Assembly: GCA_050012755.1 (NCBI GenBank)
Contig: JBEKGO010000033.1
Coordinates: forward strand, 1 to 27,878
Length of the DNA: 27,878 nucleotides
Reading direction: 5' to 3'
Origin: Candidatus Bathyarchaeia archaeon
Lineage (GTDB): Archaea > Thermoproteota > Bathyarchaeia > Bathyarchaeales > Bathycorpusculaceae
Part shown: positions 11,661 to 27,550 of the stretch, piece by piece
Numbering within the stretch: position 1 is the stretch's first letter
How the letters are laid out: each line of letters starts with the position of its first letter
The notes under the pieces: model-generated
The model's database searches: none
Told to the model about the DNA's origin: nothing
The model's input: only the letters and a program-made list of their open reading frames with translations
Made by a program: the position numbers and the translations under genes

Positions 11661-12135
11661 TTTTTTGGTACTTTTTTATACTTTTTCGTACGTTCCTAAC
11701 CTTTTTGGTACGTTTCAAACCTTTTCTAGCCTTTTCTAACCTTTTCTGTACGTGACCTGCAACTAATTCAAACCCTAAATCTAAAAAGCAACCCAAAACA
11801 CAAAGAAAAAAATTGCGCCACAAAAACCGTCAATAACTGGTTCGCGACGCGAAAAGCCAACCTGCCTCTTTCTTTTTTCTTCCGTTTTCTTACATTTTCT
11901 TGCAGATCCTTGCATTTTCTCACATTTAGAGAAGCAACATGCAAACAAACTAAGCTCTAATTCCAAAAAACAGTCTAAAACACAAAGAAAAAACCTATAC
12001 GAAAACCCATCAATGACGTTGCTTCGGTAGGGATTTTTTGGGATGTTTCTAGATGTTTTGGGATGTTTTAAGATTATGGTTGCAATAGATTTGAGCCCCA
12101 AAATTAGAAAAGCAACTTAAACCACAAAGAACAAA
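11661..12135 (+). repeat. cluster of 3 [10-mer array + 60-bp core] elements; cores at 11751, 11933 and ~12074
   Basis: Arrays of CTTTTCTAAC type (11661-11750), TACATTTTCT type (11871-11930) and GGATGTTTTG type (12031-12074), each followed by the core. Confidence 0.92.
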
Positions 12136-12247
12136 ATTTCATTAAGAATATTGTAGCCTTTTCTTGTCATATGTAGATTGTCTCTTTCAATATTCTGTCC
12201 TTTATCTGGACCTTCAGGGGCAGTCATAATATGTCGAAGATGCGAGT

Positions 12248-12643
12248 CTATTTAATGCTGTCTAATGTGGAACCGTTTGCCGCAGGTGTTATTTTTTTGA
12301 TTAGCCTCAAGTCTTCCGTTATTAGTTTTAGTTCTTTTGTCTTAGCAAAATAAACGTATGAAGCGTCGTAAAAAGTAATTTTTAGTTTTATTGCGGTGTC
12401 TAATATTTCTTCTTCACTGTCAGTTATCTCCATTACGTTCATTATGGTTAAGGTGTGCTTGATCGACTTTGCCAGCATTTTTGCTTCTTGCTCTGAAACC
12501 TTAGCGTGTAAGAGGCAGTCTTTCCAAATGATGTTTCCCAATTCATATCTTGCTAACTCTAAAGTGTAATTTCCAGCCAAAAACTCGATTTTGTTTTCTT
12601 TAATGGCTCTAAATATAGCTGAAGAATCAAAAAGACGCTTCAT
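12248..12643 (-). CDS. vapC: VapC PIN-domain toxin
   Basis: LFDSSAI, YELGNIIWK, ITFYDASY, LITED; ATGA overlap with the antitoxin. Confidence 0.93.
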   Translation of the reverse strand: MKRLFDSSAIFRAIKENKIEFLAGNYTLELARYELGNIIWKDCLLHAKVSEQEAKMLAKSIKHTLTIMNVMEITDSEEEILDTAIKLKITFYDASYVYFAKTKELKLITEDLRLIKKITPAANGSTLDSIK

Positions 12644-12873
12644 CGGCTATCCCTATCTTCTCTTATGCCCTTCACTATATCTTCTATGCTTACTTTTTCA
12701 AGTATCGGCTTCAACCTGTCTATCTCTTCTTTTAGCTCTTCCATCTCTCTTTTTTTCACTTCATCTTCAAGGGCTTTTCGCAAAATCTTAGACGGCTTGA
12801 TTTTGAACCTCTGAATTTTTTCTTTGAGTTGCTTGGGGATTTTTGTAGAAACTGTAACACATTGTTGCACCAA
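12640..12873 (-). CDS. vapB: cognate antitoxin (RHH/CcdA-like VapB)
   Basis: VTVSTKIPKQLKEK..IKPSKILRKALEDEV..IREDRD. Likely start TTG 12873 or GTG 12870, after GGTGA. Confidence 0.85.
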   Translation of the reverse strand: MVQQCVTVSTKIPKQLKEKIQRFKIKPSKILRKALEDEVKKREMEELKEEIDRLKPILEKVSIEDIVKGIREDRDSR

Positions 12874-13000
12874 ATTATTCTCACCGCATATTACTACTTT
12901 AAAGTAAGATAAAATAGTTTCCATAAGGTGCAAAGGAAATAAATAAGCAGTAACGTATGGAGCTGGGGATGGGAATTGGATCCATTTATGACAGCTTTTT

Positions 13001-13094
13001 TGGACTTATTTTGACGTTTTTGGACTTTTTCCGACTCAACCTGCCAAGAAATCAAACCCTAAACCAAAAAAGCAACTTGAAAAACAAAGAAAAA
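13001..13094 (+). repeat. single [10-mer array + core] element, GGAC/TGAC type; core at 13035
   Basis: TGGACTTATT TTGACGTTTT TGGACTTTTT CCGA|CTCAACCTGCCAAGAAATCAAACCCTAAACCAAAAAAGCAACTTGAAAAACAAAGAAAAA. Confidence 0.92.
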
Positions 13095-13274
13095 AATTCT
13101 GAAAAAAATAATTTGCGCTAAGAGAGCCTAACCAAGTAATAGGCATCTAATTTTCACAGAAGATCCTATACAAAGAAGAGAAGAGCTTTTCATGCGAATC
13201 AAATAGGAATATAGTTTCTCTCAGGCTTTTAGAACAACCTTATAAGTTAAAAAAACAAATAAGATTTGAGAAAA

Positions 13275-13469
13275 ATGACAATCGAAGTTGATCTAAAAGA
13301 AATAAAATCATTGCTGTCAGAGGTTAACCAGAAACTTGATTCGTTGCTTGAAGAAAAAGACACCCACGTAATTATGGCTCTTGAGGAGAAATCACTCAGG
13401 GATTTTCTAGAAAAAGAACCTGACCTTTATTCACTCAGAGACATCAAGGCAAAGGTTAAGTGTAATTGA
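13275..13469 (+). CDS. putative antitoxin of the MazF/PemK toxin
   Basis: Small acidic ORF (EEKSLRDFLEKEPDLYS) with TTGA overlap on the toxin. Start ATG 13275 or TTG 13266. Confidence 0.78.
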   Translation: MTIEVDLKEIKSLLSEVNQKLDSLLEEKDTHVIMALEEKSLRDFLEKEPDLYSLRDIKAKVKCN

Positions 13470-13792
13470 AAGGAAAAATAGTTCTGATCTCTTTTCCGTT
13501 TACTGACTTAACTTCGACAAAATTGAGGCCTGCGCTTGTTCTTTATGAAAGCGAAAAAGATGTCGTGGTAGCTTTTATTTCCTCAAGGATAGGAAAAGCA
13601 AGATCTGTTGACATTTTGATTAAGGAAAATCACTCAGAGTTCAAGAAGACTGGGCTTAAGGTTGCGTCGTCGGTAAGACTTGACAAATTGGCAACGTTAT
13701 CAAAAGAATTGATTCTTGGCGAAATAGGCGAAGTCGGTCCTAAACTTAAGATGGAAATAAACGAGAAAATATCTAAAACCCTCATTCTCTGA
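13466..13792 (+). CDS. mazF: PemK/MazF-family endoribonuclease toxin
   Basis: GKIVLISFPFTDLTSTKLRPALV, VVAFISS, TGLKVASSVRLDKLATL. Confidence 0.93.
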   Translation: MKGKIVLISFPFTDLTSTKLRPALVLYESEKDVVVAFISSRIGKARSVDILIKENHSEFKKTGLKVASSVRLDKLATLSKELILGEIGEVGPKLKMEINEKISKTLIL

Positions 13793-13870
13793 ACGGAAAA
13801 CATATCCAAGTTTGCGCATCTTTTCTTTGACTGTTAACCTTAGCTTTTTCACTTAGTTTCACTTTCTACT

Positions 13871-14281
13871 CTGAACATTTTTGGACTTTTTTGGACTTTA
13901 TTCGACTCAACCCGCAGCCCCTTCAAGCCCTAAATCAAGAAAGCAATCTAAAACACAAAGAAAAAAACCGCACAAAAACCTGTCAATAACTGATTCGGCA
14001 CGCAACAAACTAACCTGTCTTTTCCTTTTTCTTGTGTTTTTTTACAGATTCTTACATTTTTTTACATTTAGGGACGCAACCTGCAAACAAAACAAGCTTC
14101 AAAGCAAAAAAGCAGCTTGAACCACAAAGAACAAAAAATGGGAAGGGTTTGCTTAGGGTTGCTTAGGTTTGCGTGCTTTTGCTTCTGTTTACATGCTTGT
14201 GCTTAGGTTTACTTCTATTTACGCAGCCTGCAGACAAAACACAACCAAAAATAAAAAAGCAACCCAAAACACAAAGAACAA
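13871..14281 (+). repeat. cluster of 3 [10-mer array + core] elements; cores at 13906, 14075 and 14222
   Basis: Arrays of TTGGACTTTT type, TTTACATTTT type and GCTTAGGTTT type (14141-14220, 8 units). Confidence 0.92.
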
Positions 14282-14352
14282 AAAACAGACAAAACACGCC
14301 TACAAAACAGCACAAGCTCGGCGCTAAAACAAAAAAAGAAAATGGTGCGTTT

Positions 14353-14805
14353 TTAGTCTGTTCCTGATATGGTCATTGTGTCGCTGAAGCTTGAAATGCC
14401 AGTTATGCTTGGAGATACGGTTAACGTTATGGTTGCTGCTACTGCTTGCCCAGTTGATAGTTGTGCTCCTTGTTGGCTCCAGCTTATGGCTATGTAGGTG
14501 CTTGCTCCAGCGGGATTCCAATTGCTTGTTGTCAAGCTCAGTGTTATGGTGCCTGCGCCCGTGTTCTTTACGTAGACGGTTTGAGTGGCAACTCCTTCGG
14601 CTGAGATAGATCCCCAGTTCACTGAAGCCATTGTTGTGGTGCAGGCACTGTCAGAGTACACTCTGATGTTAGGCGAGGAGGTTGTGATTGACCCTGACGA
14701 ATTTATGTTTGCGCTCACGTTAATTTCACTGTAAGTGGTCATCGTTAAAGCGAACCCAGCCAAAACTAAACATATTATTGCAAAGATCATGATACTTTTT
14801 TGCAT
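14353..14805 (-). CDS. small secreted beta-rich protein, paralog 1 (candidate TasA/bundling-pilin-like subunit)
   Basis: Signal peptide, then SSGSI, VYSDSACT, VNWGSI, TVYVKNTG, WNP, FS..ITISG pattern shared with 16969-17475 and 18604-19053. Confidence 0.85.
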   Translation of the reverse strand: MQKSIMIFAIICLVLAGFALTMTTYSEINVSANINSSGSITTSSPNIRVYSDSACTTTMASVNWGSISAEGVATQTVYVKNTGAGTITLSLTTSNWNPAGASTYIAISWSQQGAQLSTGQAVAATITLTVSPSITGISSFSDTMTISGTD

Positions 14806-15123
14806 ATTTACCTCTCTCTAGGTAACGTTGTTTGAATTGCCAGCCTATGAATTTCGATGTAAACGAGAGTAACAAAAAAACACATGATACTTTTCTAGCT
14901 TCCACATTAGAAGCCACGGCTACAACAGCTGCCATAGCTGAAAACTTCCGTCACACAGCCTCCAAGGTTGATATTGGATTGAGAAATAAATGCAAATTGA
15001 TGTTGAACGGATGAATCTTTTTTAGTGAAGCCGACTTTGCAAACCCGTGAAGCCGTCTTTTCAAAAACCAATAAAAGTAATTACTTCCCAATAGGGGGCT
15101 TGAGGGTATTGAGAGGGGCAAAG

Positions 15124-15549
15124 ATGGTTAGACGATCGGTGTTTGAAAAAATATTTCGCGAGATGCAAAGCATCCATTTTCGACTAGATGACTTGGAAAA
15201 AAACATTTCAAGTTGGAGTCCACATCCGGTAGAACTACCTGAAGCAGACCTATTCTCGCTATCGGATCACCTCCGCAAGACATACATGACCGTTGCTTCC
15301 ACAGGTGAATGCGATGCCATCCAAGTTTCAACCAAAACAGGCAGATGCCGAGCACTAGAAAGCAACTACCTAAACCAACTCTGCCGAATGGGCTGGCTAA
15401 ACAAACGAAAAGTCTCCAAATCAACCCACTTCTACCTAGCCCAAGAAAAAACACCCAGAAAACAACCCTTAATCGTAGTAGATATCCCTCGAAAAATGCC
15501 CAAGCTCCAAATCGGAAAAGACTTCAGAAAATTCTTCGCTGAACCATAG
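15124..15549 (+). CDS. winged helix-turn-helix DNA-binding protein with an N-terminal coiled coil
   Basis: LSDHLRKTY..AIQVSTKTGRCRALESNYLNQLCRMGWLNKRK. Start ATG 15124 after GAGGGG. Confidence 0.8.
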   Translation: MVRRSVFEKIFREMQSIHFRLDDLEKNISSWSPHPVELPEADLFSLSDHLRKTYMTVASTGECDAIQVSTKTGRCRALESNYLNQLCRMGWLNKRKVSKSTHFYLAQEKTPRKQPLIVVDIPRKMPKLQIGKDFRKFFAEP

Positions 15550-15560
15550 GAATTAGAAAC

Positions 15561-15770
15561 ATGAAAAAACGAAACAGAACAATATCACTCTTGCTAATGC
15601 CCGCGATGGTTTTTGTCTGGGCACTCGGCTGGATCTTATACAACTTAGAATCAAAAAGCGAGCACAAAACCAGAAAAACAGTAACCCCCATAAAACTTAG
15701 ACAAACCTCAATAGGTTTTCCGCGAAGCTTCGCAGTTGAAAAACCCCCAAGAATCGATCCAACTCTTTAA
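15561..15770 (+). CDS. small single-TM protein
   Basis: Basic N-terminus then ISLLLMPAMVFVWALGWILY; starts 11 bp after the upstream stop. Confidence 0.65.
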   Translation: MKKRNRTISLLLMPAMVFVWALGWILYNLESKSEHKTRKTVTPIKLRQTSIGFPRSFAVEKPPRIDPTL

Positions 15771-15965
15771 CCCTAAACTTCAAAATCTGCTCTACCACCT
15801 TGCAAACGACACAATATTGGAAATCGGGTCTTCTAACCTGAAAAAAACACAATTTTGCCCTATTTAGGACTTAATTTATATCTACGTTTAACCTGTAGAT
15901 GCTCAAAAATCAAACGCAAGAGGACTGCGTTTCACCTACAATCAGCATCAAACAGGTTTCTAGAA

Positions 15966-16763
15966 ATGGCGGAAGATCAAGAAAACGTTTCAAAAGTACT
16001 CTCTACTCTCGCGCATCCAATAAGACGCAAAATACTCATGACTCTATGCGACAAAGGCGAAACCAGCTTCACCGACCTCATTAATGCACTAAATCTCGAT
16101 ACAGGCAGACTGAGCTTCCACATGAGAAGCCTCAAACCCTTCATAGAGCCGACAAAATCAGGAAAATACAAACTTAACCGAACAGGCGAAGACGCGATCA
16201 GAATCATTAGAGATGTAGCATCTTGGGCAGAACTTGCCGACCTAAAACGAAAAAGTGCCATGCTAACTCCGGCACCCATCAAAAACCGCATCTACGCATT
16301 TCTAATAGACTTCTACCTTATGTTCACCATTGCCGTGTTGCTTCTGCTTGAAACAGTAATTTCACAAGTTCAAGCCAACACAATAGGCGTTCTTTTAAAC
16401 CTGCTGTTTGTTTCATTAGGCATCCTCTGGATTTACTCCACTCTCTTTGAAGGCTTCAAAGGACAAACTCTGGGCAAACGCGCCTTAGGCTTGATAGTCA
16501 TAAGAACAGACGGCATGAAAGTAGACTACGAACACTCAGCAATAAGAAACTTTGGCAAGGTTATTCTACCCGTCGACCTAGTCTTAGGATACATGCTAAA
16601 GGACCCAAAATACATCCGCTACTTCGACAAATTCGCGGGAACCGCAGTCATCGAACTCCGCACCCGCCAAAACAAACTTCCCAAAAACACAAATCAGCAT
16701 GACCAAATGCAACCATTATTGCAACCTGAACTTCTTAATCAATCCAAACAAACCGTAAACTAA
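15966..16763 (+). CDS. ArsR-type wHTH fused to an RDD-family membrane domain
   Basis: LAHPIRRKIL..SFTDL..GRLSFHMRSL..Y.L followed by RIYAFLID, EGFKGQTLGKRALGL, IRN, DKFAGTAVI. Start ATG 15966. Confidence 0.9.
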   Translation: MAEDQENVSKVLSTLAHPIRRKILMTLCDKGETSFTDLINALNLDTGRLSFHMRSLKPFIEPTKSGKYKLNRTGEDAIRIIRDVASWAELADLKRKSAMLTPAPIKNRIYAFLIDFYLMFTIAVLLLLETVISQVQANTIGVLLNLLFVSLGILWIYSTLFEGFKGQTLGKRALGLIVIRTDGMKVDYEHSAIRNFGKVILPVDLVLGYMLKDPKYIRYFDKFAGTAVIELRTRQNKLPKNTNQHDQMQPLLQPELLNQSKQTVN

Positions 16764-16968
16764 ACCAAAAACGTCTGCAATTGGGTTCCGGTAACTTAGC
16801 GTGGGAAAATGCTTTCCATGTTAACGATCGTGAGATAACTCGTTTATTATGGTGATACAAACTTGCAAGTCATGCTGGGATGTCTCCAAAGGCTTTAACG
16901 AAAAAATGCTCTTCGAGAAAGATTTCTTAGGGAAAAAGGAAGGAGTGCAGGAAGGTTTTTGTGGTGAG

Positions 16969-17475
16969 TTATTGGGAGCCGGTTATGGTTATGCTGAAGT
17001 TGAACGAACCTGCTGTTGCGCTTGATGAAGCTGCCAATGTTAGGGTTGCGGAGGTTGATGCGCCTGCGGCTAGGGTTGTTACTGTGGGGACCCATGTGCA
17101 TGTGAGGTAGGTGTTTGCGTTTGATGGGGTATAATTGCTTGTGGTCATGCTGAGAGTCTCTGCGGTGTTGCCTGTGTTTTTGATGTAGATGGTTACGGTT
17201 GTTTGGCTGCCGGGGGTTATGGTTCCCCAGGTTACGGCTGACATGGCTGTTGTCAGGCCTGCGTCGCTGTAGATGGATACGCCAACTGTTTGGATTGGTG
17301 TTGGTGTGGGTGTTGATGGTGGAGGTGTTGGTGCGGGTGTTGATGTTGGTGTGATTGATCCGGTTGCGGCCAAGGTTTGATTTGCGCTTAACAAACCTGA
17401 AGTGGCTATGACAAGCATCATGCCAACTAAGCCTATTACGATTAGTACTCCTATGTTAGGTCTTTTCAACTTCAT
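16969..17475 (-). CDS. small secreted beta-rich protein, paralog 2 (with Pro/Thr insertion)
   Basis: MKLKRPNIGVLI signal peptide as in paralog 3; WGTITPGSQTTVTIYIKNTGN. Confidence 0.88.
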   Translation of the reverse strand: MKLKRPNIGVLIVIGLVGMMLVIATSGLLSANQTLAATGSITPTSTPAPTPPPSTPTPTPIQTVGVSIYSDAGLTTAMSAVTWGTITPGSQTTVTIYIKNTGNTAETLSMTTSNYTPSNANTYLTCTWVPTVTTLAAGASTSATLTLAASSSATAGSFNFSITITGSQ

Positions 17476-17590
17476 GTTCTTATTACCTTTTAGTATGGTC
17501 ACTTGAGTCGGAAGTATTAATAAATGTTACTTTGTGGAAATCTTAACTGTAAATATGCACAACAACGATACACAAACAAACCAAAGCAAA
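17476..17590 (-). promoter_or_regulatory. archaeal promoter (purine-rich BRE-like + TTTATTAATA at 17524-17515), duplicated upstream of paralog 3
   Basis: About 115 bp closely similar to 19054-19170. Confidence 0.7.
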
Positions 17591-17600
17591 CAAAGAATCG

Positions 17601-17882
17601 TTTTTGACGGGTAGTGACGTTCTGTGACGTTTTATGACGCGTAGTGACGCAGCCTGCAAAAGATTCAAACTTAGATTCGAAAATCAGTCTAAAACACAAA
17701 AACAAAAAATAGCACAAACACAAAAATGTGGGATCCCTAATAGCTTTCACTTATTTCACTTTTCTGCCCGAACTTTTTGGACCGTTTCAAACCTTTTCTA
17801 ACCTTTTCCAACCTTTTTAAACCGCAACCTGCAGATAAATCAAAGCCTAAACCAAGAAAGCAACTTGAAACAAACTGAACAA
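17601..17882 (+). repeat. cluster of 2 [10-mer array + core] elements; cores at 17648 and 17823
   Basis: GTAGTGACGT-type array (17601-17648) and ACCTTTTCTA-type array (17771-17822). Confidence 0.92.
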
Positions 17883-18138
17883 ATTTGAAACAAGAAAACA
17901 GGCTCACATAGACAGGCTTGGAACAACAAGAAGAATCGGCAGGACACATTCTGTCCAACACAAAAACAACCCACATTGACAAACAGATAGCAATTCTGAA
18001 AAAGTGTCTCATGAAATATTGCACTATTTTGATCAATTCTCTTGTTCACACGCATATCAGTTAGTACGAACCAACATTGAAAAATGCTATGAGCGTAGAG
18101 CAACACTACATATTCTAAATCAACTTGAAGTGAGCCGC

Positions 18139-18474
18139 ATGGTAAAACTACTATCGATAATTTGTTCTACACTATTTCTTTTAGGAGCAGCAGATTTGCT
18201 CACTACAGTGATTGGGGTCACAGGAAAAGGCGCAATCGAAGTTAACCCTCTTTTTGCAGCAATCATCCAGACAAACATCCTGGCTTTTGTTGGACTAAAA
18301 ATTGCCACTGTTCTTTTCACGGGCTTTATGTTTCTGGGCGCGGGAAGAATTTCTAAAGGGGCAGGCAGCAATATCTTAGGAAAATACTTTATGCTCTCCG
18401 CCTCATCTATCTCTTGTTTCATAATGACAGCAGTCGTAGCAAACAACCTCTTAGTCCTCCTACGAATTCCGTAA
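18139..18474 (+). CDS. DUF5658-like small membrane protein
   Basis: ADLLTTVIGV..GAIEVNPL..LKI..VVANNL with 3 TM segments. Start ATG 18139. Confidence 0.8.
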   Translation: MVKLLSIICSTLFLLGAADLLTTVIGVTGKGAIEVNPLFAAIIQTNILAFVGLKIATVLFTGFMFLGAGRISKGAGSNILGKYFMLSASSISCFIMTAVVANNLLVLLRIP

Positions 18475-18561
18475 CAAACTCAAAGCACTATTTTCCAAAA
18501 AGAAAGAACAAAGAAAACGCTGACAAGTTTTTGAAAATAGAATGCTCAAGAAAAAGGAGAG

Positions 18562-18593
18562 AAAGGGGATGAGAAGTTTTAGTTGTCCCCTTT
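18562..18593 (-). terminator. possible terminator downstream of paralog 3
   Basis: Inverted repeat AAAGGGGA..TCCCCTTT followed on the minus strand by a pyrimidine/T-rich tract. Confidence 0.4.
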
Positions 18594-18603
18594 TTACAGT
18601 TGT

Positions 18604-19053
18604 CTACTGAGTGCCGGTTAAAACAATGTTGCAGCTGAATGTTGTGAGTGCACTGGCGCCTGATAAAGCGGTCAGGGTCAGGGTGGCTAAGGTGGATTGT
18701 CCAGCGGTTAAAGTTGATAAGGTTGGCGACCAAGTTATTGTTAGGTATGTGCCTGCGTTTGATGGGGTCCAGGTATTTGTGGCCATGGTTAAGTTTTCTG
18801 CGATGTTTCCGGTGTTTTTAACGTAGATTGTTTGTGTTACTTGTGTTCCTGGCGATAGGGTTCCCCAAGATACTGTGGTTATTGGTACTGTGCATGCGGC
18901 GTCGCTGTAGACTCCAAGGTTTATTCCTGCTATTGTTCCGCTTGCGGATAGGGTTTGATTTGTGCTCAATAAACCTGCTGTGGCTATGATAAGCATCATG
19001 CCTACTATGCCTATTGCGATTAGTACTCCTATGTTAGGTCTTTTCAACTTCAT
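18604..19053 (-). CDS. small secreted beta-rich protein, paralog 3
   Basis: Signal peptide, LSASGTI, LGVYSDAACT, WGTLSPGTQVTQTIYVKNTGN. Confidence 0.9.
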   Translation of the reverse strand: MKLKRPNIGVLIAIGIVGMMLIIATAGLLSTNQTLSASGTIAGINLGVYSDAACTVPITTVSWGTLSPGTQVTQTIYVKNTGNIAENLTMATNTWTPSNAGTYLTITWSPTLSTLTAGQSTLATLTLTALSGASALTTFSCNIVLTGTQ

Positions 19054-19170
19054 GTTCTTATCCCCTTACTATATGGTCAAGTGAGTCTTAAGTATTAATA
19101 AACATTACTTTATGGAAATCTAAACTGAAAATATGCACAACAACAATACACAAACAACACAAAACAAACA
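19054..19170 (-). promoter_or_regulatory. archaeal promoter (TTTATTAATA at 19102-19093), duplicate of 17476-17590
   Basis: Direct alignment by eye. Confidence 0.7.
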
Positions 19171-19220
19171 AAACACCCACAAACACACCCACAAGCGCCG
19201 AAACAAACCAATTACACCCC

Positions 19221-19690
19221 TTTTCAACCTTTCAAACCGTTTTAAGCCACCTAAAGTCATTTCTAATCATTCCTAACCATCATTAACGGTTTCAAACCAC
19301 ACCGAAACTAATTCAAAACCCAAATCAAAAAAGAAGCTCAGAAGAACTTGAACGAAATTTGAAGTTGATTTTTTGGTTTTGTTGTTTGGTGACGTTTTGT
19401 GACGTTTTAAGACGCGTAGTGACTTTTAGTGACTTGTAGTGACTCAACCTGCAAACGGAGCAAACCCTAAACTAAAAACTCAACCCAAAACGACTAGAAC
19501 AAAATATAGCCTAAGAAACAATAATATGGAATCAGCTAACCTTCAATCTATTTCAATTCTCTGCCGTGAACATTTTTTGACATATTTTGACTTTTTTAGA
19601 CGAATTTTGACGTTTTTGGACTTTTTTTGACTCAACCTACAACCATTTTAAGCCCCAATTCAAAAAAGCAATCTAAAACACAAAGAACAA
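19221..19690 (+). repeat. cluster of 3 [10-mer array + core] elements; cores at ~19296 (diverged), 19443 and 19631
   Basis: AAAC/TAAC-type, GTGAC-type (19389-19443) and TTTTGAC-type (19571-19631) arrays. Confidence 0.92.
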
Positions 19691-19753
19691 AACCTGCACA
19701 AAAACCTGTCAATGACCGATTTCACACATTTCTAAAAGATGTTTCCAGGGGGT

Positions 19754-20479
19754 TTAGGGGTTGTGTTGTTTGTACCAGGTTTCCATGTATGTGTTGATTA
19801 TGTCTCCGTGGTAGCAGTTTCGGGTTGGGTTGTAGCTGAGGATTTCTCTGTTTTTTTCGTTTAGGTTGTAGTATGTGATTTCTGATATCATGGTTTCTTT
19901 GTCTGTGGATTCTTTGTTGCCGTAGCTTGCAAGTTTTGAGGCTTCTTCGATTACGTTGCCCATCCAAATTACTTCGCCTACGCCGCTGCCCCTGTAGCCA
20001 GTTTTCACCGCTAGGGCTTTTCCATATGACATTCCTACGCCAATGGCTATTTCTTTCAGGTTATTTTTCTTTAATTTATAATTCATTATGTCGATTAGGG
20101 ATGAAATTCTGGCTGCGGTTGAAAAAACTTCGTCGACGTCCTCTTGGAACGGAGTATCGAAAACCCCCCAAACAGAACCATCTGCGATGTTTATTTCCGC
20201 ACATTTTGGGTTGCCATTCATGACGGCGGTAACTTCAGAAATGAAGACTCTGTAAAGTTTGATGTCTGCTATGTTTGTATGAAAATTGGTCAGTTCAGGT
20301 GATTTGCGGATATCTACGCAGAGGGCTGAGCATTTGACGTAAAATCCGTTAATGTAGGTTAATTCGTTGCGGGCTGGGATGCGGTCTCGTTCCTCGTAGT
20401 TGCTGTCTTGGGCTGTTACTATTTGGTTGATTCGGTCAACGCTGTCTTTAACATTATACTCTGCATGGTCGGTTTTCAT
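19754..20479 (-). CDS. stand-alone class III nucleotide cyclase-fold protein with atypical catalytic motifs
   Basis: ALCVDIRKS, INIADGSVWGVF, IGVGMSYG, WMGNVIEEASKLAS, MISEITYYNL. Confidence 0.85.
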   Translation of the reverse strand: MKTDHAEYNVKDSVDRINQIVTAQDSNYEERDRIPARNELTYINGFYVKCSALCVDIRKSPELTNFHTNIADIKLYRVFISEVTAVMNGNPKCAEINIADGSVWGVFDTPFQEDVDEVFSTAARISSLIDIMNYKLKKNNLKEIAIGVGMSYGKALAVKTGYRGSGVGEVIWMGNVIEEASKLASYGNKESTDKETMISEITYYNLNEKNREILSYNPTRNCYHGDIINTYMETWYKQHNP

Positions 20480-20567
20480 TAATCTTCATCTATCCCCAGC
20501 CAATTATTAGGAATTTTGCCTTGCCTCCGCTGAGATTTTTCTGCTCAGTGCTATGCTTTCTGGCTGT

Positions 20568-21509
20568 TTAAACAATTGATGAAGTTCTCTGTACTTGGGC
20601 GTTTACAGCATCGGCTAACGCTTTACATGCTGCTTGCCTAGCCTCGGTCGATGTGTCGGTTTCCAGGTTCACTAGCTCTTCACGCAAACTCTCCATTCGA
20701 CCCATAATAGCCTGCTTTCGTTTCTCGTAATCTTCATCTAGTTTGCGCTGCTCATCGGCAAAATTCTGTTGCGCTACTTCGAGGTCATTCTTGGCAGACT
20801 TTAGATCTAGTTTCATTTGAGGAACTTTGTCGTCAGTTTTCTTTTTGAGGATTTTTCGTTTGCTATTCTCTTCTACTTGGCTTAGCACTTCACGTTCTAG
20901 TTCTCGCACGCGATTTGAAAGTCGTTGGAGTTCGGAGTCTTTTTTGGCGCTGAGTTCTTTGGCTTTTTCAGCATATTCTTTATCGGTTTCTACTAGAAGA
21001 TGATTGTGGTCAGTTAGGGCCTTCGCAACTGTGTCGATGTTTGCTTCTTCCATTTTTTTCTTCGAAAGTACATTTCCGACTTCAAGAAGAATCTGAGAGC
21101 GATCCTTGATAAACTGCTCATCCACTTTCACTGGGGAATCAGACTCAAAATCCGAGATGACCCGGCGCAGATTACTAAGCCAAGCATCATAATTTTCAGC
21201 AAAAGGAGAACCTGAAAAAGCCTGGGTTCCAAGCTGATTTGACTCGTTGAGCGTTTTCTCTGCAAGTTCTCTTAAATGTGCCAAATTTCTTTCTTCAACA
21301 GACTCATCGCTTACAGGTAATTGCGGTTTTTCAGCGCCCATCAGCGCTTTTAACGAATGGATTTCATCTTTCAAGGCGGCAATGTCATTTTCTAAAACAT
21401 TTGATTTAGCTTCAGCGATTCTTTTGAGTTCTTCAACTTCCGCTAAGAGGCTTTGTTTTTCAACTTCCAAATTTTTCAGTTTATCAACTGTACTCTTAAG
21501 ACTACTCAC
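20568..21509 (-). CDS. long coiled-coil hypothetical protein
   Basis: 313 aa, E/K/L-rich heptads, no TM; GTG start after GGGGGA. Confidence 0.85.
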   Translation of the reverse strand: MSSLKSTVDKLKNLEVEKQSLLAEVEELKRIAEAKSNVLENDIAALKDEIHSLKALMGAEKPQLPVSDESVEERNLAHLRELAEKTLNESNQLGTQAFSGSPFAENYDAWLSNLRRVISDFESDSPVKVDEQFIKDRSQILLEVGNVLSKKKMEEANIDTVAKALTDHNHLLVETDKEYAEKAKELSAKKDSELQRLSNRVRELEREVLSQVEENSKRKILKKKTDDKVPQMKLDLKSAKNDLEVAQQNFADEQRKLDEDYEKRKQAIMGRMESLREELVNLETDTSTEARQAACKALADAVNAQVQRTSSIV

Positions 21510-22635: not shown

Positions 22636-22804
22636 AAACTTTTTTTAACACTTTTAATGATGAGTCCAAAACCCCAAGTTACCTATTTCTTTCTTAATTT
22701 TTCTACTCACAGCTTTTGATCTGCGGCTTAAACTATTCATCACGCAATTTATTTTTGATTGAAATCAGTGTCGATCGAGCCAAGCTTGAACTCAACTTTT
22801 GATA

Positions 22805-23481: not shown

Positions 23482-23850
23482 CTAGAAGTTCTCAACATGC
23501 TGTTTTAATGAGTCAACGTAAAACTCAAAACTCAAATTTGATCCTTCCAGCAAATAATTAAATGAAGGATCCTTCTGCTTTAAAGCTTTCATTATAGCAA
23601 GTTCAAGGAGAAAGGCGGTCGGCCCAAAAACTTTTTCAAGTCCATCAACAAAATCCCCTATTCTGCCAGGTATGTCTTTCTTGCTTAGTTTGTATTTTTT
23701 GTCCAAAAAAGAAAAGAGCGCTTGCTTAGAATTCGTCCCGAGCAGAATTAAGAAAGATTGATCAATTGCTTCAAGAAGGAGGTCGTCAAACTTTGAATTT
23801 TGAAGATCTATCTGAATTTTGGGGAAGTTTTCAGTTTGTGTTTGATCCAT
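23482..23850 (-). CDS. conserved archaeal hypothetical protein (DUF3227/NitrOD5-like helical domain)
   Basis: LLEAIDQSF..LG..KQAL..L..KY.L...IP.RI..F..GLEKVFG..A.LLE..IMK.L. The family name is from memory. Confidence 0.75.
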   Translation of the reverse strand: MDQTQTENFPKIQIDLQNSKFDDLLLEAIDQSFLILLGTNSKQALFSFLDKKYKLSKKDIPGRIGDFVDGLEKVFGPTAFLLELAIMKALKQKDPSFNYLLEGSNLSFEFYVDSLKQHVENF

Positions 23851-24224
23851 TTTGGTGTCACTTCTTCCTTGCTGTTGTTTTGTCTTACTTGACTACAGTT
23901 TAAATGTAGTAAGTCTTAATATATCAATTACTTTGTTTTTTGACATATTACGAAAATCGATATATACAAAGAAGACATAAAACACATCAAAATTGAACTT
24001 GTCGGAAAGTTTATGACATATTGCATTAAACGAAATATCCCTTTTAAAGCTAAACCACCTCTAAATTTTTGAGGAGCAAAGGAGAAAGCTTCTTACGGGG
24101 AGAGGGAGAACCCTTATCCCTTCTCAGAAACTGAAAATGATTATCCCTCTAACCCGTATTTTTTTCAGATCAAGCGTAAATTTGCGAGTATGAAACAAGT
24201 TATTGACGGATTTTTGTGCGGTTT

Positions 24225-24470
24225 TTGTTGTTTGTGCTTTGGGTTGCTTTTTTGGTTTAGGCTTTGATTTGTCTGCAGGCTGCGTAAATAGAAGCAAACC
24301 TAAGCACAAGCATGTAAATAGAAGCAAAAGCAAGTAAACCTGCGCAAACCTAAGCAAACCCTGCCCCATTTTTGTTCTTTGTGGTTTAAGTTGCTTTTTT
24401 AATTTGGGGCTCAAATCTATTGCAACCATAATCTTAAAACATCCCAAAACATCTAGAAACATCCCAAAAA
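24225..24470 (-). repeat. cluster of 2 [10-mer array + core] elements on the minus strand; cores 24431-24372 and 24284-24225
   Basis: The GGAT-type unit is a near-identical inverted copy of 12036-12137. The GCTT-type unit is a close inverted copy of 14120-14281. Confidence 0.95.
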
Positions 24471-24529
24471 GTCAAGAAAAGTTGGAAGCGTGAGAAGAAA
24501 AGAAAATGGAATTAGCAGATTTCTTTAAC

Positions 24530-24742
24530 TTATGCAACTGTTACTTCTTTTTTTGCTAAACCTTCAACCATCAATGGAACTATTTTGCTGGCTCTAAGTA
24601 TTTCTAAGAAGAGAGGGTTGCCTCTGTCGTCAACGTGAAGTATCATGTCACCTACTTCTTGCGCCTGGGCAAGTTTACCTTTCTCTTTTACAAAAATCGT
24701 GAGCACATCTGCATCATCGTCATATTTGATTTTATAGGTCAT
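24530..24742 (-). CDS. DUF2283-family protein (putative antitoxin)
   Basis: IKYDDDADVLTI...ILHVDDRGNPLFLEILRAS. Confidence 0.88.
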   Translation of the reverse strand: MTYKIKYDDDADVLTIFVKEKGKLAQAQEVGDMILHVDDRGNPLFLEILRASKIVPLMVEGLAKKEVTVA

Positions 24743-24995
24743 ATCGATCTCTTCTTACAGGATAAAAGGTTATAATAACTAAAAAATCTTTTCTGCTCTC
24801 ATAAATGACTCTTAAGGCATGTTTACGGCTAATAACTTTGGAGGCAAGAAACTGACCGCCCCTTTCATCGAGCCGTTGAGGTTGAAGAACAACTTCCAAA
24901 ACCTTTTCTTTCCCAATTTCAAATCCGTATTGTTTCAGAACCTCGAATTTCTCAACAGCATGTTTTGTAAACCTGATTTTTGAAGCCCTATCCAA
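24732..24995 (-). CDS. DUF4258-like protein (putative RelE/BrnT-fold toxin)
   Basis: IRFTKHAVEK..V.EVV..P..LRVIYE..VIITFYP; overlaps the DUF2283 gene. Confidence 0.82.
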   Translation of the reverse strand: MDRASKIRFTKHAVEKFEVLKQYGFEIGKEKVLEVVLQPQRLDERGGQFLASKVISRKHALRVIYESRKDFLVIITFYPVRRDRYDL

Positions 24996-25092
24996 ACAAC
25001 TAATCCCTAAATCATGTAATAACGAAGTTTACAGATAAACTTTGCATATCACTATTTTGTCCAACTAGTTTACAATTCTGTTTCGGCAAATT

Positions 25093-25526
25093 TTGTTCTT
25101 TGTGTTTTGGGTTGCTTTTTTGGTTTAGGGTTTGCAATGTTTGCAGGCTGCGTGTTTATTTGTGTGAATTTGTGTTGAAATGTGTCTAATTGTGTTAAAA
25201 TGTGTTTATATGTGTAATTTTGTGTGGAAATGCGCGAAAACGGGGCGATTATTATAAGGTTTCTGCACAAGACTTTGTCCTCTGTACATTGGGTTGCTTT
25301 TTTAGTTTTAGGGTTTGATTTCTTGGCAGGTTGAGTCAAAAAAAGTCTAAATAAGTCCAGAAAAGTTCAGCAGGAAAAGTAAAGGGCAGTAGAGTATATT
25401 TTTTTGGGCAAAATTTTTTCTCTGTATTTTGGATTGTTTTTTGCTTTGGAGCTTGTGGCGTTTGCGGGTTGAGTCCCATAAATCATAGGAGTCCCCCAAG
25501 GTCCCAAAAAGCCAAAATGGTCAAAA
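25093..25526 (-). repeat. cluster of 3 [10-mer array + core] elements on the minus strand; cores 25473-25414, 25335-25275 and 25152-25093
   Basis: GGGAC-type (irregular), GGAC/TGAC-type and ACAC-type arrays (TGTGT every 10 bp on +, 25153-25230). Confidence 0.92.
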
Positions 25527-25564
25527 GAAAACCGTTTACTCAGATCTTTAATACAACTTCAGCC

Positions 25565-25966
25565 TTACTTCATTTCCTTTATTGGAATTGCGACCTTGCA
25601 TTTCTTTAGCAAGTCTGTGTCCGCAGTGACTAACCTCATTTCTTCTTTTTCAGCGATGTATGCATATGAAGCATCATAGAATGTAAGATGCCTATCTATT
25701 GCAACTGCCAAAACGTTGGCTAATGAGTCAATCTCCATCTTTCTTAGAGGTTGAATGAGTTCGAAAAAGATTGTTGCTACTCTTTTGGGGTCCTTGAGCT
25801 TTTTTTGCTGGTTTTCCCTCCAGAGCACGTTTCCAATCTCATATTCCGTTAGGGAACTCACTGCACATTCGTCTGCATTGAATGCAATACCCGAGAGAAG
25901 TATGGGATATAATGCAGAGGTGTCTATGAGATATTTACATCTCGTGCCTTGTCGCTTTGACATCAT
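25565..25966 (-). CDS. vapC: VapC PIN-domain toxin
   Basis: YLIDTSAL, YEIGNVLWR, LTFYDASY, LVTAD. Confidence 0.93.
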   Translation of the reverse strand: MMSKRQGTRCKYLIDTSALYPILLSGIAFNADECAVSSLTEYEIGNVLWRENQQKKLKDPKRVATIFFELIQPLRKMEIDSLANVLAVAIDRHLTFYDASYAYIAEKEEMRLVTADTDLLKKCKVAIPIKEMK

Positions 25967-26162
25967 TTACCCATTCCTCAGGTTTAACATCCATCAGACT
26001 GCTGAGTTCTTTAGCGATTTTCTGTGCTTTTGCTTTTTTTTCAGCCACTAATTCCTCAAGAAGTTGCTCCACAGCCACTTTTAAGTCAACTCCTAGCTTC
26101 TCAGCTTCATCTTTCAAGCCTTTCTTGACTCTTACAGATAAGACTTCAGTCATTGTATACAC
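25935..26162 (-). CDS. vapB: cognate antitoxin (RHH/CcdA-like VapB)
   Basis: VLSVRVKKGLKDEAEKLGVD..EEWVNDVKATR; overlaps vapC. Confidence 0.87.
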   Translation of the reverse strand: MYTMTEVLSVRVKKGLKDEAEKLGVDLKVAVEQLLEELVAEKKAKAQKIAKELSSLMDVKPEEWVNDVKATRHEM

Positions 26163-26205
26163 CTAAGATATAATGTATACGACTTTCATATAAGATTTTG
26201 TGACG

Positions 26206-26265
26206 CTTCATTTTGTTTGGTTAAACAATTCTTCGGTTTAGAGTTTGTGGGTTAGGCAGACTATA
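26206..26265 (-). repeat. degenerate core element between two vapBC pairs
   Basis: Minus strand TATAGTCTGC CTAACCCACA AACTCTAAAC CGAAGAA matches the first two thirds of the consensus in register. Confidence 0.45.
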
Positions 26266-26528
26266 AGCAAAAGGCCTTTGAAGAAAACAAGTGAAAGAAT
26301 CAGCAGTTAAGCGTTAATGAACAGGCTTTTATGGTTGTAAAACTGGAAAGTTGACATGGTATTCAGCGAAAGCTCAAAGACGCCCAAATAATTTTCTTGA
26401 CCATATATAGTAATGTCTTGATAACTTGGAAGCTTCCTTACATGAATCTTAGCTTTGGCACTGTCATATAATCAATAAATTGTTTGAGAATATTTTCTAT
26501 TATTTTTGCTTGAGCTTGAATAGCCATC

Positions 26529-26930
26529 CTATTTGAAAATAAGCTTCAAATAATCCAACTTGCCCAAGTGCTTTTGGTCGTTCGAATAAACCTCGTAGAT
26601 GCCTAACCTCATCATTAATGCTAGATTCACGCCATCGTTGAAATCTATATTTTCGGTAGCCATGTTACTTGCCCCAACAAGCAAATCATCCTGCGTACAA
26701 GCAACGACTTCAAGTGTTCGGTATGACATAATCTCCTCAAGTGTTGGCTTAATATCTCCCTGCCTGCCCATAGATTCTAGTACCCAAACTACCTCACACA
26801 GCACCAATGTAGAGGTTACAGCTCTCTCGCCTTTCTCAATGCGTTCAAGAATATCCTTGGAGATTTTGCCAAAACGTGGATGAGCTGTGAGGGTATAGAT
26901 GAAAATGTTGGTATCTAAAAAACGACTCAC
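26529..26930 (-). CDS. vapC: VapC PIN-domain toxin
   Basis: FLDTNIFIY, TSTLVLCEV, IDFNDG, VYSND; GTGA overlap. Confidence 0.93.
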   Translation of the reverse strand: MSRFLDTNIFIYTLTAHPRFGKISKDILERIEKGERAVTSTLVLCEVVWVLESMGRQGDIKPTLEEIMSYRTLEVVACTQDDLLVGASNMATENIDFNDGVNLALMMRLGIYEVYSNDQKHLGKLDYLKLIFK

Positions 26931-27196
26931 TCAAAATCCTCAACTAACTTTTTTCGAATATAGTCTCGCGCTAACTCCTTTGGCTCTTCAATGGGTCTCT
27001 CTATCTTTACGGAGCCGTACAGCGCCTCAGTCGGCTTATGATATGTCTTAACAGGTACTAGGCAAATACGACCCATGTAATCTGTAATGATAAGGCGAAT
27101 GCCCTCATCTATTCCATATTTTTTCCGAATTTTCTTAGGCAGTATCATACGTCCATATCTGCCAACTTCAACAGACATTTTTCCTATACCTGACAA
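26927..27196 (-). CDS. vapB: AbrB/MazE/SpoVT-type antitoxin
   Basis: VGRYGRMILPKKIRKKYGIDEG. Start may be ATG 27178. Confidence 0.9.
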   Translation of the reverse strand: MSGIGKMSVEVGRYGRMILPKKIRKKYGIDEGIRLIITDYMGRICLVPVKTYHKPTEALYGSVKIERPIEEPKELARDYIRKKLVEDFE

Positions 27197-27416
27197 ATAA
27201 TCAATTAAACGCCAAATATATGTTTTATTGCCAAAAAACAGTTTCGATTCTTAGAGAGTGTATCTTGTTAGCGCTGTTTCGATATTCAACTTAATCACTA
27301 TCTCTTGTGTTACTACTTTATTATTTTGACGAATTAACTAATTAGTATTTTGCTATTTTTTGAATTTAGTGAAGTAGCCTTATTTATCTTATGGACTACA
27401 ATGTTTTAATTAAACT

Positions 27417-27550
27417 TTGGTCTTTGTGCTTCAGTTTGATTCTTTTGTTCAGGATTTGCCACGTTTGAATGTTGCGACTAGATTTGACTGATTTAGGCTC
27501 TTTATGACTTGATTAGACTCTTATTGACTATTTTTGACTGATTCTGACTT
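27417..27550 (-). repeat. single [10-mer array + core] element, AGTC type; core 27476-27417
   Basis: GACT (one GGCT variant) recurs every 10 bp on + at 27476-27549 (8 units). Minus-strand core CGCAACATTC AAACGTGGCA AATCCTGAAC AAAAGAATCA AACTGAAGCA CAAAGACCAA. Confidence 0.88.

Follow-up and report, generated by a model that had tools for sequence, protein, structure and literature searches.

A mobile, non-coding repeat family of peat Bathyarchaeia joins a 10-base periodic variable array to a common core

What are the many short arrays that, in a 27,878-nt stretch of a Bathyarchaeia genome (the window, the whole stretch of DNA that was analysed), repeat every 10 nt, differ in sequence from place to place and each lead into a similar block? 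We have found that these arrays form the variable 5' arm of a single small, non-coding, interspersed repeat family. This family of peat Bathyarchaeia is mobile and previously undescribed, and its strictly 10-base periodic, variable array, joined in fixed register to a common core, makes it a new type of repeat in archaea. A core profile search located the 62-nt, A+C-rich core in 129 copies in the 2.4-Mb genome, 17 of them within the window. An element consists of a short leader, the array (mostly 3-10 units) and the core, with or without a tail, and measures 150-190 bp as array plus core, sometimes with tail. The 25-nt tail, which ends in CCGTCAATAAC, is present in about a quarter of copies; of 125 copies, 27 have its motif at +75 to +79 and 28 have it anywhere downstream, with 0.012 expected per search window. 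As a correction to the core definition, the initial two bases assigned to the core belong to the array, being the beginning of one final partial unit.

In terms of RNA structure and coding, fold z-scores against shuffles averaged -0.16 (forward) and +0.25 (reverse) for 113 elements, and this fold analysis gave no self-complementarity. Stop codons occurred in every frame in at least 26 of 93 copies, and 3-nt periodicity was absent. Accordingly, with fold z-scores near zero and stops in all frames, we consider the elements to be unstructured and non-coding. The Rfam search of the window returned two sub-threshold chance matches only, at E up to 1. The elements may have a role at the transcript level.

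All arrays named by the initial annotation were present in the window. Tandem Repeats Finder returned period-10 rows at 11662-11747, 11875-11927, 12030-12069, 12997-13030, 13878-13907, 14037-14069, 14144-14212, 17614-17639, 17781-17823, 19384-19444, 19573-19632, 24332-24360, 24436-24469, 25158-25226, 25334-25366 and 27484-27555. The elements, and the genes with Pfam matches that lie between them, are as follows.

11651..11812, forward strand: element 1, 10-unit AACC/GTAC-type array (11651-11750) and core (11751-11812); score 43.9; period-10 and period-20 rows.
11873..11994, forward strand: element 2, 6-unit TTACA/TTGCA-type array and core (11933-11994), preceded by the element 1 tail CCGTCAATAAC.
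12034..12135, forward strand: element 3, 4-unit GGAT/AGAT-type array and variant core beginning TTATGGTTGCAAT (12074-12135).
12248-12933, reverse strand: PIN-domain gene with CcdA-like partner.
12995..13096, forward strand: element 4, 4-unit TTGAC/GGAC-type array and core (13035-13096).
13266-13792, forward strand: MazF/PemK-like gene with small upstream ORF.
13866..13967, forward strand: element 5, 4-unit GGAC-type array and core (13906-13967).
14015..14136, forward strand: element 6, 6-unit TTACA-type array and core (14075-14136).
14152..14283, forward strand: element 7, 7-unit TTTGC-type array beginning directly past the element 6 core, and core (14222-14283).
17608..17709, forward strand: element 8, 4-unit GTGAC-type array and core (17648-17709).
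17773..17884, forward strand: element 9, 5-unit AACC/GACC-type array and core (17823-17884).
19221..19360, forward strand: degenerate element, AACC-like array and decayed core, below the profile threshold; aligns with the cores (row p19285).
19383..19504, forward strand: element 10, 6-unit GTGAC-type array and core (19443-19504).
19571..19692, forward strand: element 11, 6-unit TTGAC-type array and core (19631-19692), followed by the tail variant CCTGTCAATGAC.
24223..24354, reverse strand: element 12, 7-unit TTTGC-type array (24285-24354) and core (24223-24284).
24370..24471, reverse strand: element 13, 4-unit GGAT-type array and variant core (24370-24431).
24530-24995, reverse strand: DUF4258/DUF2283 pair, between reverse-strand elements.
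25091..25232, reverse strand: element 14, 8-unit ACAC-type array and core (25091-25152), with the top core score of the genome, 48.9.
25274..25365, reverse strand: element 15, 3-unit GAC-type array and core with the 3' variant AATGTACAGAGGACAAAGTC.
25412..25473, reverse strand: core copy without clear array (zero units, score 26.2, lag-10 identity 0.30).
25565-26162, reverse strand: PIN gene and small ORF, between reverse-strand elements.
26529-27196, reverse strand: PIN gene and MazE-type antitoxin, between reverse-strand elements.
27415..27546, reverse strand: element 17, 7-unit AGTC-type array and core (27415-27476).

Element 3 and the copy at 24395-24473 are 95% complementary, and element 7 lies within a 200-nt inverted match to 24212-24411. 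The core 3' variant AATGTACAGAGGACAAAGTC is found ahead of ACAC-type elements. We take the toxin-antitoxin pairs between elements as context only.

The constant period and fixed phase that had been proposed for the arrays of the window extend to the whole genome and to other species. Among the 125 cores with enough upstream sequence for lag analysis, the best of the lags tested (5 to 16) in the 80 nt upstream of the core was 10 in 122, and period 10 was likewise found upstream of the core in 87 of 94 copies from other Bathyarchaeia MAGs. Mean upstream identity at lags 10, 20 and 30 was 0.58, 0.56 and 0.53, respectively, compared with 0.26 for random genomic 80-mers and 0.31 (maximum 0.53) for shuffles of the upstream sequences. 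A lag-10 identity of at least 0.55 was shown by 85/125 upstream sequences, 10/124 downstream sequences and 2/2000 random stretches. In terms of phase, the base that lines up with core base 1 is C in 96% of units. This C stands in at least four of the five proximal units in 105 of 118 arrays, while any other unit position reaches four of five in at most 9 arrays; in the other MAGs, C dominates the register position in 52 of 63 arrays. Conservation at unit positions 9, 10 and 1 was 0.92, 0.86 and 0.97 within arrays and 0.90, 0.83 and 0.91 between copies, above the linker positions, which score 0.64-0.76. Since the motif positions are the best conserved, the pattern fits a constrained, putatively face-specific binding array.

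The family moves or recombines, and it is restricted to one genus of peat Bathyarchaeia. Within the genus, 24 of the 40 other genomes had matches (counts 0 to 97), so that copy number per genome spans 0 to 128 (about 130), and none was found in 16 genomes that belong to the order's other families. Elements inserted independently at orthologous sites: one and the same intergenic site can be empty in one species and occupied in another, and the occupying elements vary in array type or orientation. At one such site (C1:117.6k), 8 of 13 species have an empty spacer of 44-84 nt, the genome of the window (G000) has a GGAT-type element and G022 has an oppositely oriented GAC-type element. In this one clean filled/empty comparison, neither terminal inverted repeats nor a clear target-site duplication was seen. 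At a second site (C8), elements share one 3' junction in G000 and 3 of 11 other species, with three array types among them, and the array type differs between species while the neighbouring genes are unchanged. At a third (C17), the core is oriented opposite to that of G000 in 6 of 11 species. At two conserved sites, the core 3' end keeps its place beside a conserved gene while the array side varies. Of 75 clusters, 42 are single elements between ordinary genes. Stacks reach five modules, and all 33 multi-copy clusters are co-oriented, head to tail, with most element spacings at 132-259 nt and no gene between.

A linked enzyme was sought in several ways. A search for serine recombinases (PF00239) found 0 matches in the 100% complete G000, while the control search matched 12 of 14 reference genomes. 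Tyrosine recombinases (PF00589) gave 10 matches in G000, 0/10 of them within 7 kb of an element; in G015, 2 of 16 integrase matches lay within 3 kb of an element, about chance by our own estimate. IS110-type transposase was not found. The Y1_Tnp family is represented by a single gene, on contig C64, and Y1 transposases do not track the elements, being missed in 5 of the 14 genomes that have at least 20 elements and present in 6 of the 24 that have under 5. Among 334 proteins, no family was enriched within 2.5 kb of elements (best p 0.0025, for three-member families). We rejected a REP/RAYT system, as there is no palindrome and the presence of Y1 transposase does not follow the repeat, and likewise an iteron origin or partition centromere, as neither a Rep nor a Par family is enriched beside the arrays.

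Several known systems resemble these elements in part. Pneumococcal BOX elements, enterobacterial BIMEs and MITEs are short, non-coding, multi-copy, modular intergenic repeats with variable internal subunit number. Palindromes or terminal inverted repeats form their basis, and RNA folding is common among them. The elements here are MITE-like in being short, non-coding, multi-copy and polymorphic for presence and absence, but they do not fold, and their variable module is a strict 10-nt array in fixed core register. Plasmid iterons, the parC site of ParR and the heptads of the omega repressor are tandem direct repeats with one motif per helical turn, bound cooperatively; such iteron and centromere arrays, one or a few per replicon, lie next to the gene that encodes their binding protein, unlike the about 130 copies per genome here, beside which no gene is enriched. 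In lambda-type att sites, which serve heterobivalent tyrosine integrases, tandem arm sites about 10-11 bp apart flank a core crossover site, and integration into a resident core would yield head-to-tail stacks. The stacks here fit such integration, but inverted core-type sites around an overlap were not identified, no integrase is linked, and the arrays are one-sided only. Integron attC sites and Vibrio VCRs are many co-oriented sites of about 60-130 bp interleaved with small cassettes, often toxin-antitoxin, and attC sites work in folded form, as imperfect palindromes, beside the IntI integrase. The window may resemble attC arrays, CALINs and VCRs in its co-oriented elements interleaved with small toxin-antitoxin pairs, but the elements are unfolded, no integrase is nearby, and most copies are single or 'empty'. 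The ends of IS607-family elements (IS1535, IS607, ISC1926) have short direct repeats in helical phase beside the site of DNA chemistry, and the protein nucleates on these phased repeats and spreads along DNA; terminal inverted repeats are absent (PMC6188088). The arrays share the helically phased direct repeats. However, IS607 ends carry about four 9-bp motifs of a single type and the element encodes its own serine transposase, whereas here there are 3-10 units of many types, a 62-nt common core, no gene inside and no serine recombinase in the genome.

The reading that we prefer, held tentatively and at somewhat less than even confidence, is that the repeat is mobilised in trans, that its array offers one common putative protein a landing pad in helical phase, and that its types are drifted lineages. 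The array would be a row of putative sites bound by the same trans-acting protein in every copy, either a DNA-binding or a recombination protein, which would read the common (G)AC step once per turn, assemble on one face of the DNA and act at the adjoining core. Two known systems behave in this manner: the transposase of IS607, which nucleates on subterminal motifs in helical phase, and bivalent integrases with their arm sites.

The fixed period might just as well serve DNA shape as base recognition; a 10-bp repeat adds local DNA bends in phase. In its full form, in which arrays are anisotropically bendable or curved DNA wrapping an architectural protein or histone, base sequence is free, and steps with G/C, spaced every 10 bp between T/A-rich linkers, set chromatin beside the core, we consider this reading unlikely. 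It agrees with a constant period and phase under variable sequence, with a period of exactly 10 held over at least 30 nt, and with the pooled unit composition (C at position 1, G and A at 9-10, T at 41-66% at 3-8). However, it has no need of the almost invariant C (96%) and A (67%), and A/T tracts are absent from the GAGAC and TTTGC types.

A slightly lower probability falls to the model of the initial annotation, in which a common factor binds the core and about eight or more type-specific proteins polymerise on their own arrays, the arrays being interchangeable barcodes. Many sequence variants do exist genome-wide, and each type retains its motif across copies; core bases 1-7 and 13-30 co-vary with array type (z up to 13.8), and the 10 tyrosine-recombinase-like genes are of the same order as the number of types. 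However, neither the count of eight nor discreteness held: the genome has at least 14 named types, sister species have many additional ones, and clustering gave 23 groups at a similarity cut of 0.65 that collapse into 3 at 0.55, so the types intergrade. Nearly all types have the (G)A|C skeleton at the unit boundary in identical register, which speaks for a single reader over several. The proposal of a protein for each barcode is not supported, given the intergrading types, the common skeleton and the lack of a paralogous family enriched beside elements, and different types occupy one site across species with neighbouring genes unchanged. We infer that the types are lineages of one family, with flanking bases drifted and homogenised within the array, and not separate barcodes.

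It is improbable that the elements are portable regulatory modules, that is, promoters, terminators or insulators, in which the weak TATA-like stretch CCTAAATCAAAAAA of the core would act and the T-rich arrays with the T-rich reverse core would stop transcription from both sides. Elements do lie between called genes (ORFs overlapping elements were removed beforehand), the start of a co-oriented downstream gene is mostly 44-170 nt past the core end (a few up to about 380), TATA-like words, CTTAAAT and TTTAAAT among them, are 4.5-7 times enriched upstream of host genes, and the reverse core directly follows a gene stop codon at two conserved sites. However, the orientation to flanking genes is unbiased (22 divergent, 16 convergent, 13 and 13 tandem; n=64), the TATA-like stretch is the most variable part of the core, AAGCAAC is unenriched upstream of genes (0.88 times), and tandem stacks of up to five are hard to account for.

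We give the same low credence to a functionless by-product, in which 10-nt units were duplicated again and again beside a selfish core, by slippage or by stacked target duplications, and the arrays persist by neutral drift. Superperiods of 20 and 30 nt in the window (Tandem Repeats Finder) indicate block duplications, copies of a single type differ in unit number (3 to 10), and units match the array consensus slightly less well distally (about 0.70) than proximally (0.83). However, unit-to-unit identity is nearly flat with distance (0.67 at lag 1, 0.64 at lag 7), motif positions are kept between copies well above linkers, and the period of 10 is maintained here and in other species. Furthermore, same-type copies at separate loci align unit by unit, indicating that arrays are old, stable and inherited, rather than grown per site. 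These results lend little support to the polar addition of 10-nt units at the core edge that had been suggested for the window.

Least probable of all is an integron-like platform with the core as recombination site, the array plus half a core on each side as cassette, and toxin-antitoxin or other small genes captured: co-orientation of every cluster, alternation with toxin-antitoxin pairs, the fixed core 3' end with its variable array side, and a type-core link that fades past about core position 31 while the link to the next array starts at position 47 all agree with it, but the sites lack a hairpin and an adjacent integrase, lone elements make up most clusters, the MazEF cassette occurs at 9 other loci without a strong flanking core (only 3 weak partial matches), and flank homology between loci consists of other elements, not genes.

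Further evidence of mobility comes from peat metagenome contigs: depth was 5-40 times higher over elements and contigs broke at elements; in the bin around element 14 (25075-25637), contig depth was 74 to 438 across four runs.

We found 17 copies of a core of about 62 nt, with the consensus CGCAACCTGCAAACAATTCAAGCCCTAAATCAAAAAAGCAACCTAAAACACAAAGAACAAAA, by profile search across 11.6-27.6 kb of the window. On the core strand, a tandem array of 3-10 exact 10-nt units lies 5' of 16 of these cores, the exception being core 25412-25473. All the arrays listed in the initial annotation were present, and Tandem Repeats Finder independently recovered the same arrays as rows of period 10, 20 and 30. Small genes occupy the space between the elements, including three PIN-domain toxin genes with partners, a MazF-like pair, a DUF4258/DUF2283 pair, several winged-helix regulators and three paralogous small secreted Ig-like proteins. 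The features are as follows.

Core copies, selected genes and other features of the window
8376-10121, minus strand: 581-aa protein with Big_3_5 and BNR matches
11751 to 19692, plus strand: 11 core copies, from the profile
13975-14030: TTACA-type leader with the inverted repeat GGACA...TGTCC
14353-14805, minus strand: small-protein paralogue with N-terminal hydrophobic segment
16969-17502, minus strand: small-protein paralogue with N-terminal hydrophobic segment
18604-19053, minus strand: small-protein paralogue with N-terminal hydrophobic segment
~19221-19360: decayed element below profile detection, seen by reading and by alignment with the cores
19754-21509, minus strand: two adjacent genes (241 aa and 313 aa) without a convincing Pfam family
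24223 to 27476, minus strand: 6 core copies, from the profile

The initial annotation had proposed that the arrays keep a period of about 10 nt in a fixed phase to the core, and this was borne out across the genome (G000; 2.41 Mb in 65 contigs, 41.6% G+C, with the window as contig C33). A core profile was made from the window copies and, after one round of iteration, gave 129 cores on 34 contigs. When the upstream 80 nt were autocorrelated at lags 5-16 for cores with enough upstream sequence, lag 10 was the best in 122 of 125. Mean identity upstream of the cores was 0.58, 0.56 and 0.53 at lags 10, 20 and 30, compared with lag-10 values of 0.26 for random genomic 80-mers and 0.31 (maximum 0.53) for shuffles of the upstream stretches. 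A lag-10 identity of at least 0.55 was reached by 85 of 125 upstream stretches, versus 10 of 124 downstream and 2 of 2000 random ones. In terms of phase, we numbered the units so that position 1 is in register with core base 1. Among 93 arrays with at least five units, position 1 was C in 96% of units, position 10 was A in 67% and position 9 was G in 46%. In 105 of 118 arrays, at least four of the five proximal units had C at position 1; each of the other positions reached this level in nine arrays at most.

On the other hand, the proposed number of about eight interchangeable types was too low, and the types do not form discrete classes. By our own simple motif rules we distinguished at least 14 motif types, with the following counts in G000: TTGAC 26, GTGAC 12, TTACA 12, GAGAC 11, TTTGC 10, ACAC 7, AACC 7, GACC 7, GGAT 6, TGTAC 6, GGGACG 4, ATGTC 4, AACG 4, AGTC 3 and unassigned 6. 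When the arrays were clustered by profile, the number of groups fell from 23 at a similarity cut of 0.65 to 9 at 0.60 and 3 at 0.55, and this collapse indicates that the types chain into one another. Nearly all types have in common a (G/T/C)A|C step at the unit boundary, and the first two bases of the core continue the last unit, being CT after GACT-type and CG after GACG-type units. Core positions 1-7 and 13-30 co-varied strongly with array type (z reaching 13.8), while the 3' half of the core showed no association with its own array type and, from position 47, a weak one with the next array. This mosaic association fits exchange inside the core, and strong conservation of a central block would look identical.

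Same-type arrays at different loci matched as homologues at the level of single units, and even the differences from one unit to the next were shared, most clearly in the GTGAC and ACAC arrays. Judging from these alignments, the array-core copies are one family whose arrays are inherited and not regrown at each locus. Between copies, mean pairwise identity peaked at unit positions 9, 10 and 1 (0.90, 0.83 and 0.91) and was lowest in the linker (0.64-0.76), and the same positions were best kept within arrays (0.92, 0.86 and 0.97). The comparison showed that selection preserves three things, namely the period of 10 nt, the register with the core and the (G)AC step, leaving the remainder of the unit free. 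The alternative that arrays grow by polar addition of 10-nt units at the core edge found little support, because the polarity expected from recent addition was absent: unit-to-unit identity was nearly flat (0.67 for units at lag 1, 0.64 for those at lag 7), and identity to the array consensus went from 0.83 beside the core to about 0.70 at units 8-9, a distal drop partly due to the rule used for calling array ends. We infer that the types would be lineages produced by drift together with homogenisation within arrays.

At the 5' border, homology among copies begins at the array or a few tens of bases before it, and a leader common to several types resembles CACTTTTCTGCCNTGAAC. The TTACA-type leader contains GGACA...TGTCC, a conserved short inverted repeat with T runs after it; this repeat also occurs at C40:13.8k and C34:26.1k of the genome and could be an operator or a terminator-like hairpin. 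At the other end, a tail motif GTCAA[TC]A follows 28 of 125 copies, 27 of them at +75 to +79 (chance 0.012 per window), and is embedded in the consensus ...TGCACAAAAAACCGTCAATAAC, with the copies diverging beyond it. The tail 11-mer CCGTCAATAAC was considered as a terminal inverted repeat. However, its 64 core-free matches were mostly one-mismatch hits in unrelated sequence, with a few exceptions beside degenerate cores, and thus this 11-mer does not represent an inverted repeat bounding a larger transposon. At the single clean filled/empty site used for this comparison, neither terminal inverted repeats nor clear target-site duplications were seen. A truncated core at C2:149.43k, just upstream of the element at C2:149532, has its first ~14 bases fused to the A-rich 3' end (CGCAGCCTACAAAC-AAAAAAATT) and looks like an internal deletion or a recombinant.

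A coding reading of the core was rejected, as stop codons interrupted each frame in 26 or more of the 93 indel-free cores and the conservation pattern lacked a 3-nt periodicity. A hairpin or structured-RNA reading was likewise rejected, since the folding energies of 113 elements equalled those of shuffles (mean z of -0.16 and +0.25 for the two strands); in Rfam, nothing reached any family's gathering score. Our results show a short, non-coding, unstructured and directional repeat family that inserts or recombines within one archaeal genus and stacks head to tail.

Three syntenic sites were compared among species. At C1:117.6k, where the flanking genes are syntenic, 8 of 13 other species have a spacer of 44-84 nt. 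The site is filled by 326 nt with a GGAT-type array in G000 and, in the opposite orientation, by 411 nt with a GAC-type array in G022, another Bathyarchaeia genome; two species have unrelated insertions, and the right flank is missing at two loci. The empty sites at three loci of sister species (L157, L158 and L160) have a 54-nt spacer containing AAATTTTAAAAAAGCAACC, which has 12 bases in common with the core centre, and AAAAAAGCAACC is common to the core centre and the native promoter region at the empty site. The likeness of AAATTTTAAAAAAGCAACC could be a chance promoter resemblance, a relic or a preferred target; AAGCAAC was not enriched upstream of genes. At C8:33.9k, the core 3' end meets the same conserved gene at the same junction in G000 and 3 of 11 other species, with arrays of three types (AACC/GTTC, ATGTC twice, and CACA), and the other eight species are without the element. 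At C17:39.6k, the same conserved gene precedes a core in 6 of 11 species, but this core is oriented opposite to that in G000, and three species keep an apparently ancestral syntenic junction. Accordingly, the gain, loss or replacement of elements keeps a pace similar to that of speciation within the genus.

Element positions tend to coincide with junctions between conserved and variable regions. The 125 elements fell into 75 clusters, of which 42 hold one element, 21 two, 9 three, 1 four and 2 five. Co-orientation was seen in 33 of 33 multi-copy clusters, and the core-to-core spacing within stacks was 132-259 nt. The order of arrays in stacks is combinatorial, and the commonest pair was GAGAC then TTTGC (five times). 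Based on crude ORF calls, orientation relative to the flanking genes was unbiased in 64 clusters (22 divergent, 16 convergent, 13 + 13 tandem). A replichore bias was rejected (element orientation against flank GC skew, p = 0.94), and a weak link to AT skew (p = 0.02) may stem from undetected copies. In another Bathyarchaeia genome, G015, 16 of 20 elements on contig C6 are on the plus strand and those on C5 are mostly on the minus strand between 44 kb and 425 kb, which hints that orientation is biased by region. Of the 40 other genomes of the genus, 12 have the MazEF cassette seen in the window. At nine MazEF loci examined, a strong flanking core was absent, with weak partial matches at three, so that these genes are not visibly travelling with the elements.

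In the search for a mobilising enzyme, G000 had no serine recombinase (PF00239) or IS110-type transposase (PF01548), one weak TnpB-like match (PF07282) and one DDE transposase fragment, on C57 (PF01609). Ten tyrosine recombinase matches were all more than 7 kb from any element, and of the 16 integrase matches in G015, a genome with 105 elements, 2 were within 3 kb of an element, about the chance rate by our estimate. A single IS200-type Y1 transposase gene (PF01797) at C64:2780-3172 on the minus strand is followed immediately by its own terminal hairpin, which is G+C-rich, and carries a short internal duplication close to the 3' end; sister genomes have up to 10 copies. Within the genus, searches recovered this transposase from 9 of 14 genomes that have 20 or more elements and from 6 of 24 that have fewer than five, and three nearly complete element-rich genomes gave no match. 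Considering that the presence of this transposase does not track element counts, it is no convincing mobiliser. The searches with PF00239, PF01548, PF07282, PF01609 and PF01797 linked no enzyme to the elements, and no protein family was enriched within 2.5 kb of them.

The reading we consider most likely, with slightly less than even confidence, is that the array would be a row of binding sites on one face of the helix for a single trans-acting protein. Such a protein would assemble along the array and act at the core. The arm sites of bivalent integrases are an analogue of a phased array beside a core. Competing with this common-protein model are a pure DNA-shape code, the type-specific proteins suggested by the initial annotation, an integron-like platform, a portable regulatory module and a neutral by-product. 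A more far-reaching reading, which we regard as unlikely, is a new archaeal DNA-rearrangement system. Here the 62-nt core would be the crossover or insertion site, and the exchangeable phased decamer arrays would be arms loading a putative trans-acting recombinase. Minimal circles of array and core would integrate into resident cores, giving head-to-tail stacks and the borders of variable islands with toxin-antitoxin and defence genes. If a recombinase is found, the system could explain island building in these archaea and could be a new site-specific tool.

Bathyarchaeia are abundant and uncultured, and to our knowledge their mobile DNA is almost undescribed. The titles returned by a literature search on Bathyarchaeia repeats and integrons included no description of such repeats, and the abstracts from one on archaeal integrons represented general integron literature only. 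In this family, arrays with a strict period of 10 nt exist as dozens of sequence variants, all held in fixed register to one common core. These variants form a natural experiment on what a phased array must keep, namely period, phase and the AC step, and on what may change.

In a pattern scan of species-representative genomes, core matches came almost exclusively from metagenome-assembled genomes whose titles name Candidatus Bathyarchaeota or Bathyarchaeia and which derive from surveys of bog, peat and soil; the remaining matches, in unrelated taxa (mostly bacteria), were attributed to chance. The profile confirmed a core in 82 of 107 of these loci, lag 10 was best in 87 of 94 with enough upstream sequence, and C was dominant at unit position 1 in 52 of 63 arrays. 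Extra array types were GAGAT, TAGC, GGACGGTAAA, CGACA, AGATTAAACT and GAGTC. With a core model derived from G000, which will miss diverged cores of distant species, matches were found in 24 of 40 other genomes of the genus (counts 0 to 97, a zero being a 97%-complete single-contig genome) and in none of 16 genomes of the order's other families. By our estimate, the ~129 copies, each 150-190 bp long, amount to ~1% of G000. The elements break assemblies and occupy the borders of conserved and variable regions. In four peat metagenomes, contig depth over elements was 5-40 times that of the flanks, and contigs ended inside cores. Metagenome contig joints were rejected as evidence of excision, as they reflected cross-mapping of other repeat copies.

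Several other features of the window were observed. One of the Ig-like paralogues has weak Pfam matches (CARDB, NPCBM_assoc) and another a TP-rich linker, and all three genome members of this family lie within 2.5 kb of elements. The pair of 241-aa and 313-aa genes sits between the plus-strand and minus-strand element blocks, and the 313-aa gene has only a weak HALZ leucine-zipper match (E 0.0018, under the curated cut-off). The gene of the 581-aa protein contains a 90-nt tandem repeat (2.4 copies, 97% matches) built from 12-nt subunits. The glycan-biosynthesis part of the window has near-identical direct repeats at 712-870 and 2571-2729 (98%) and a second pair at 3105-3158 and 8080-8133 (91%), which bear no relation to the array-core family.
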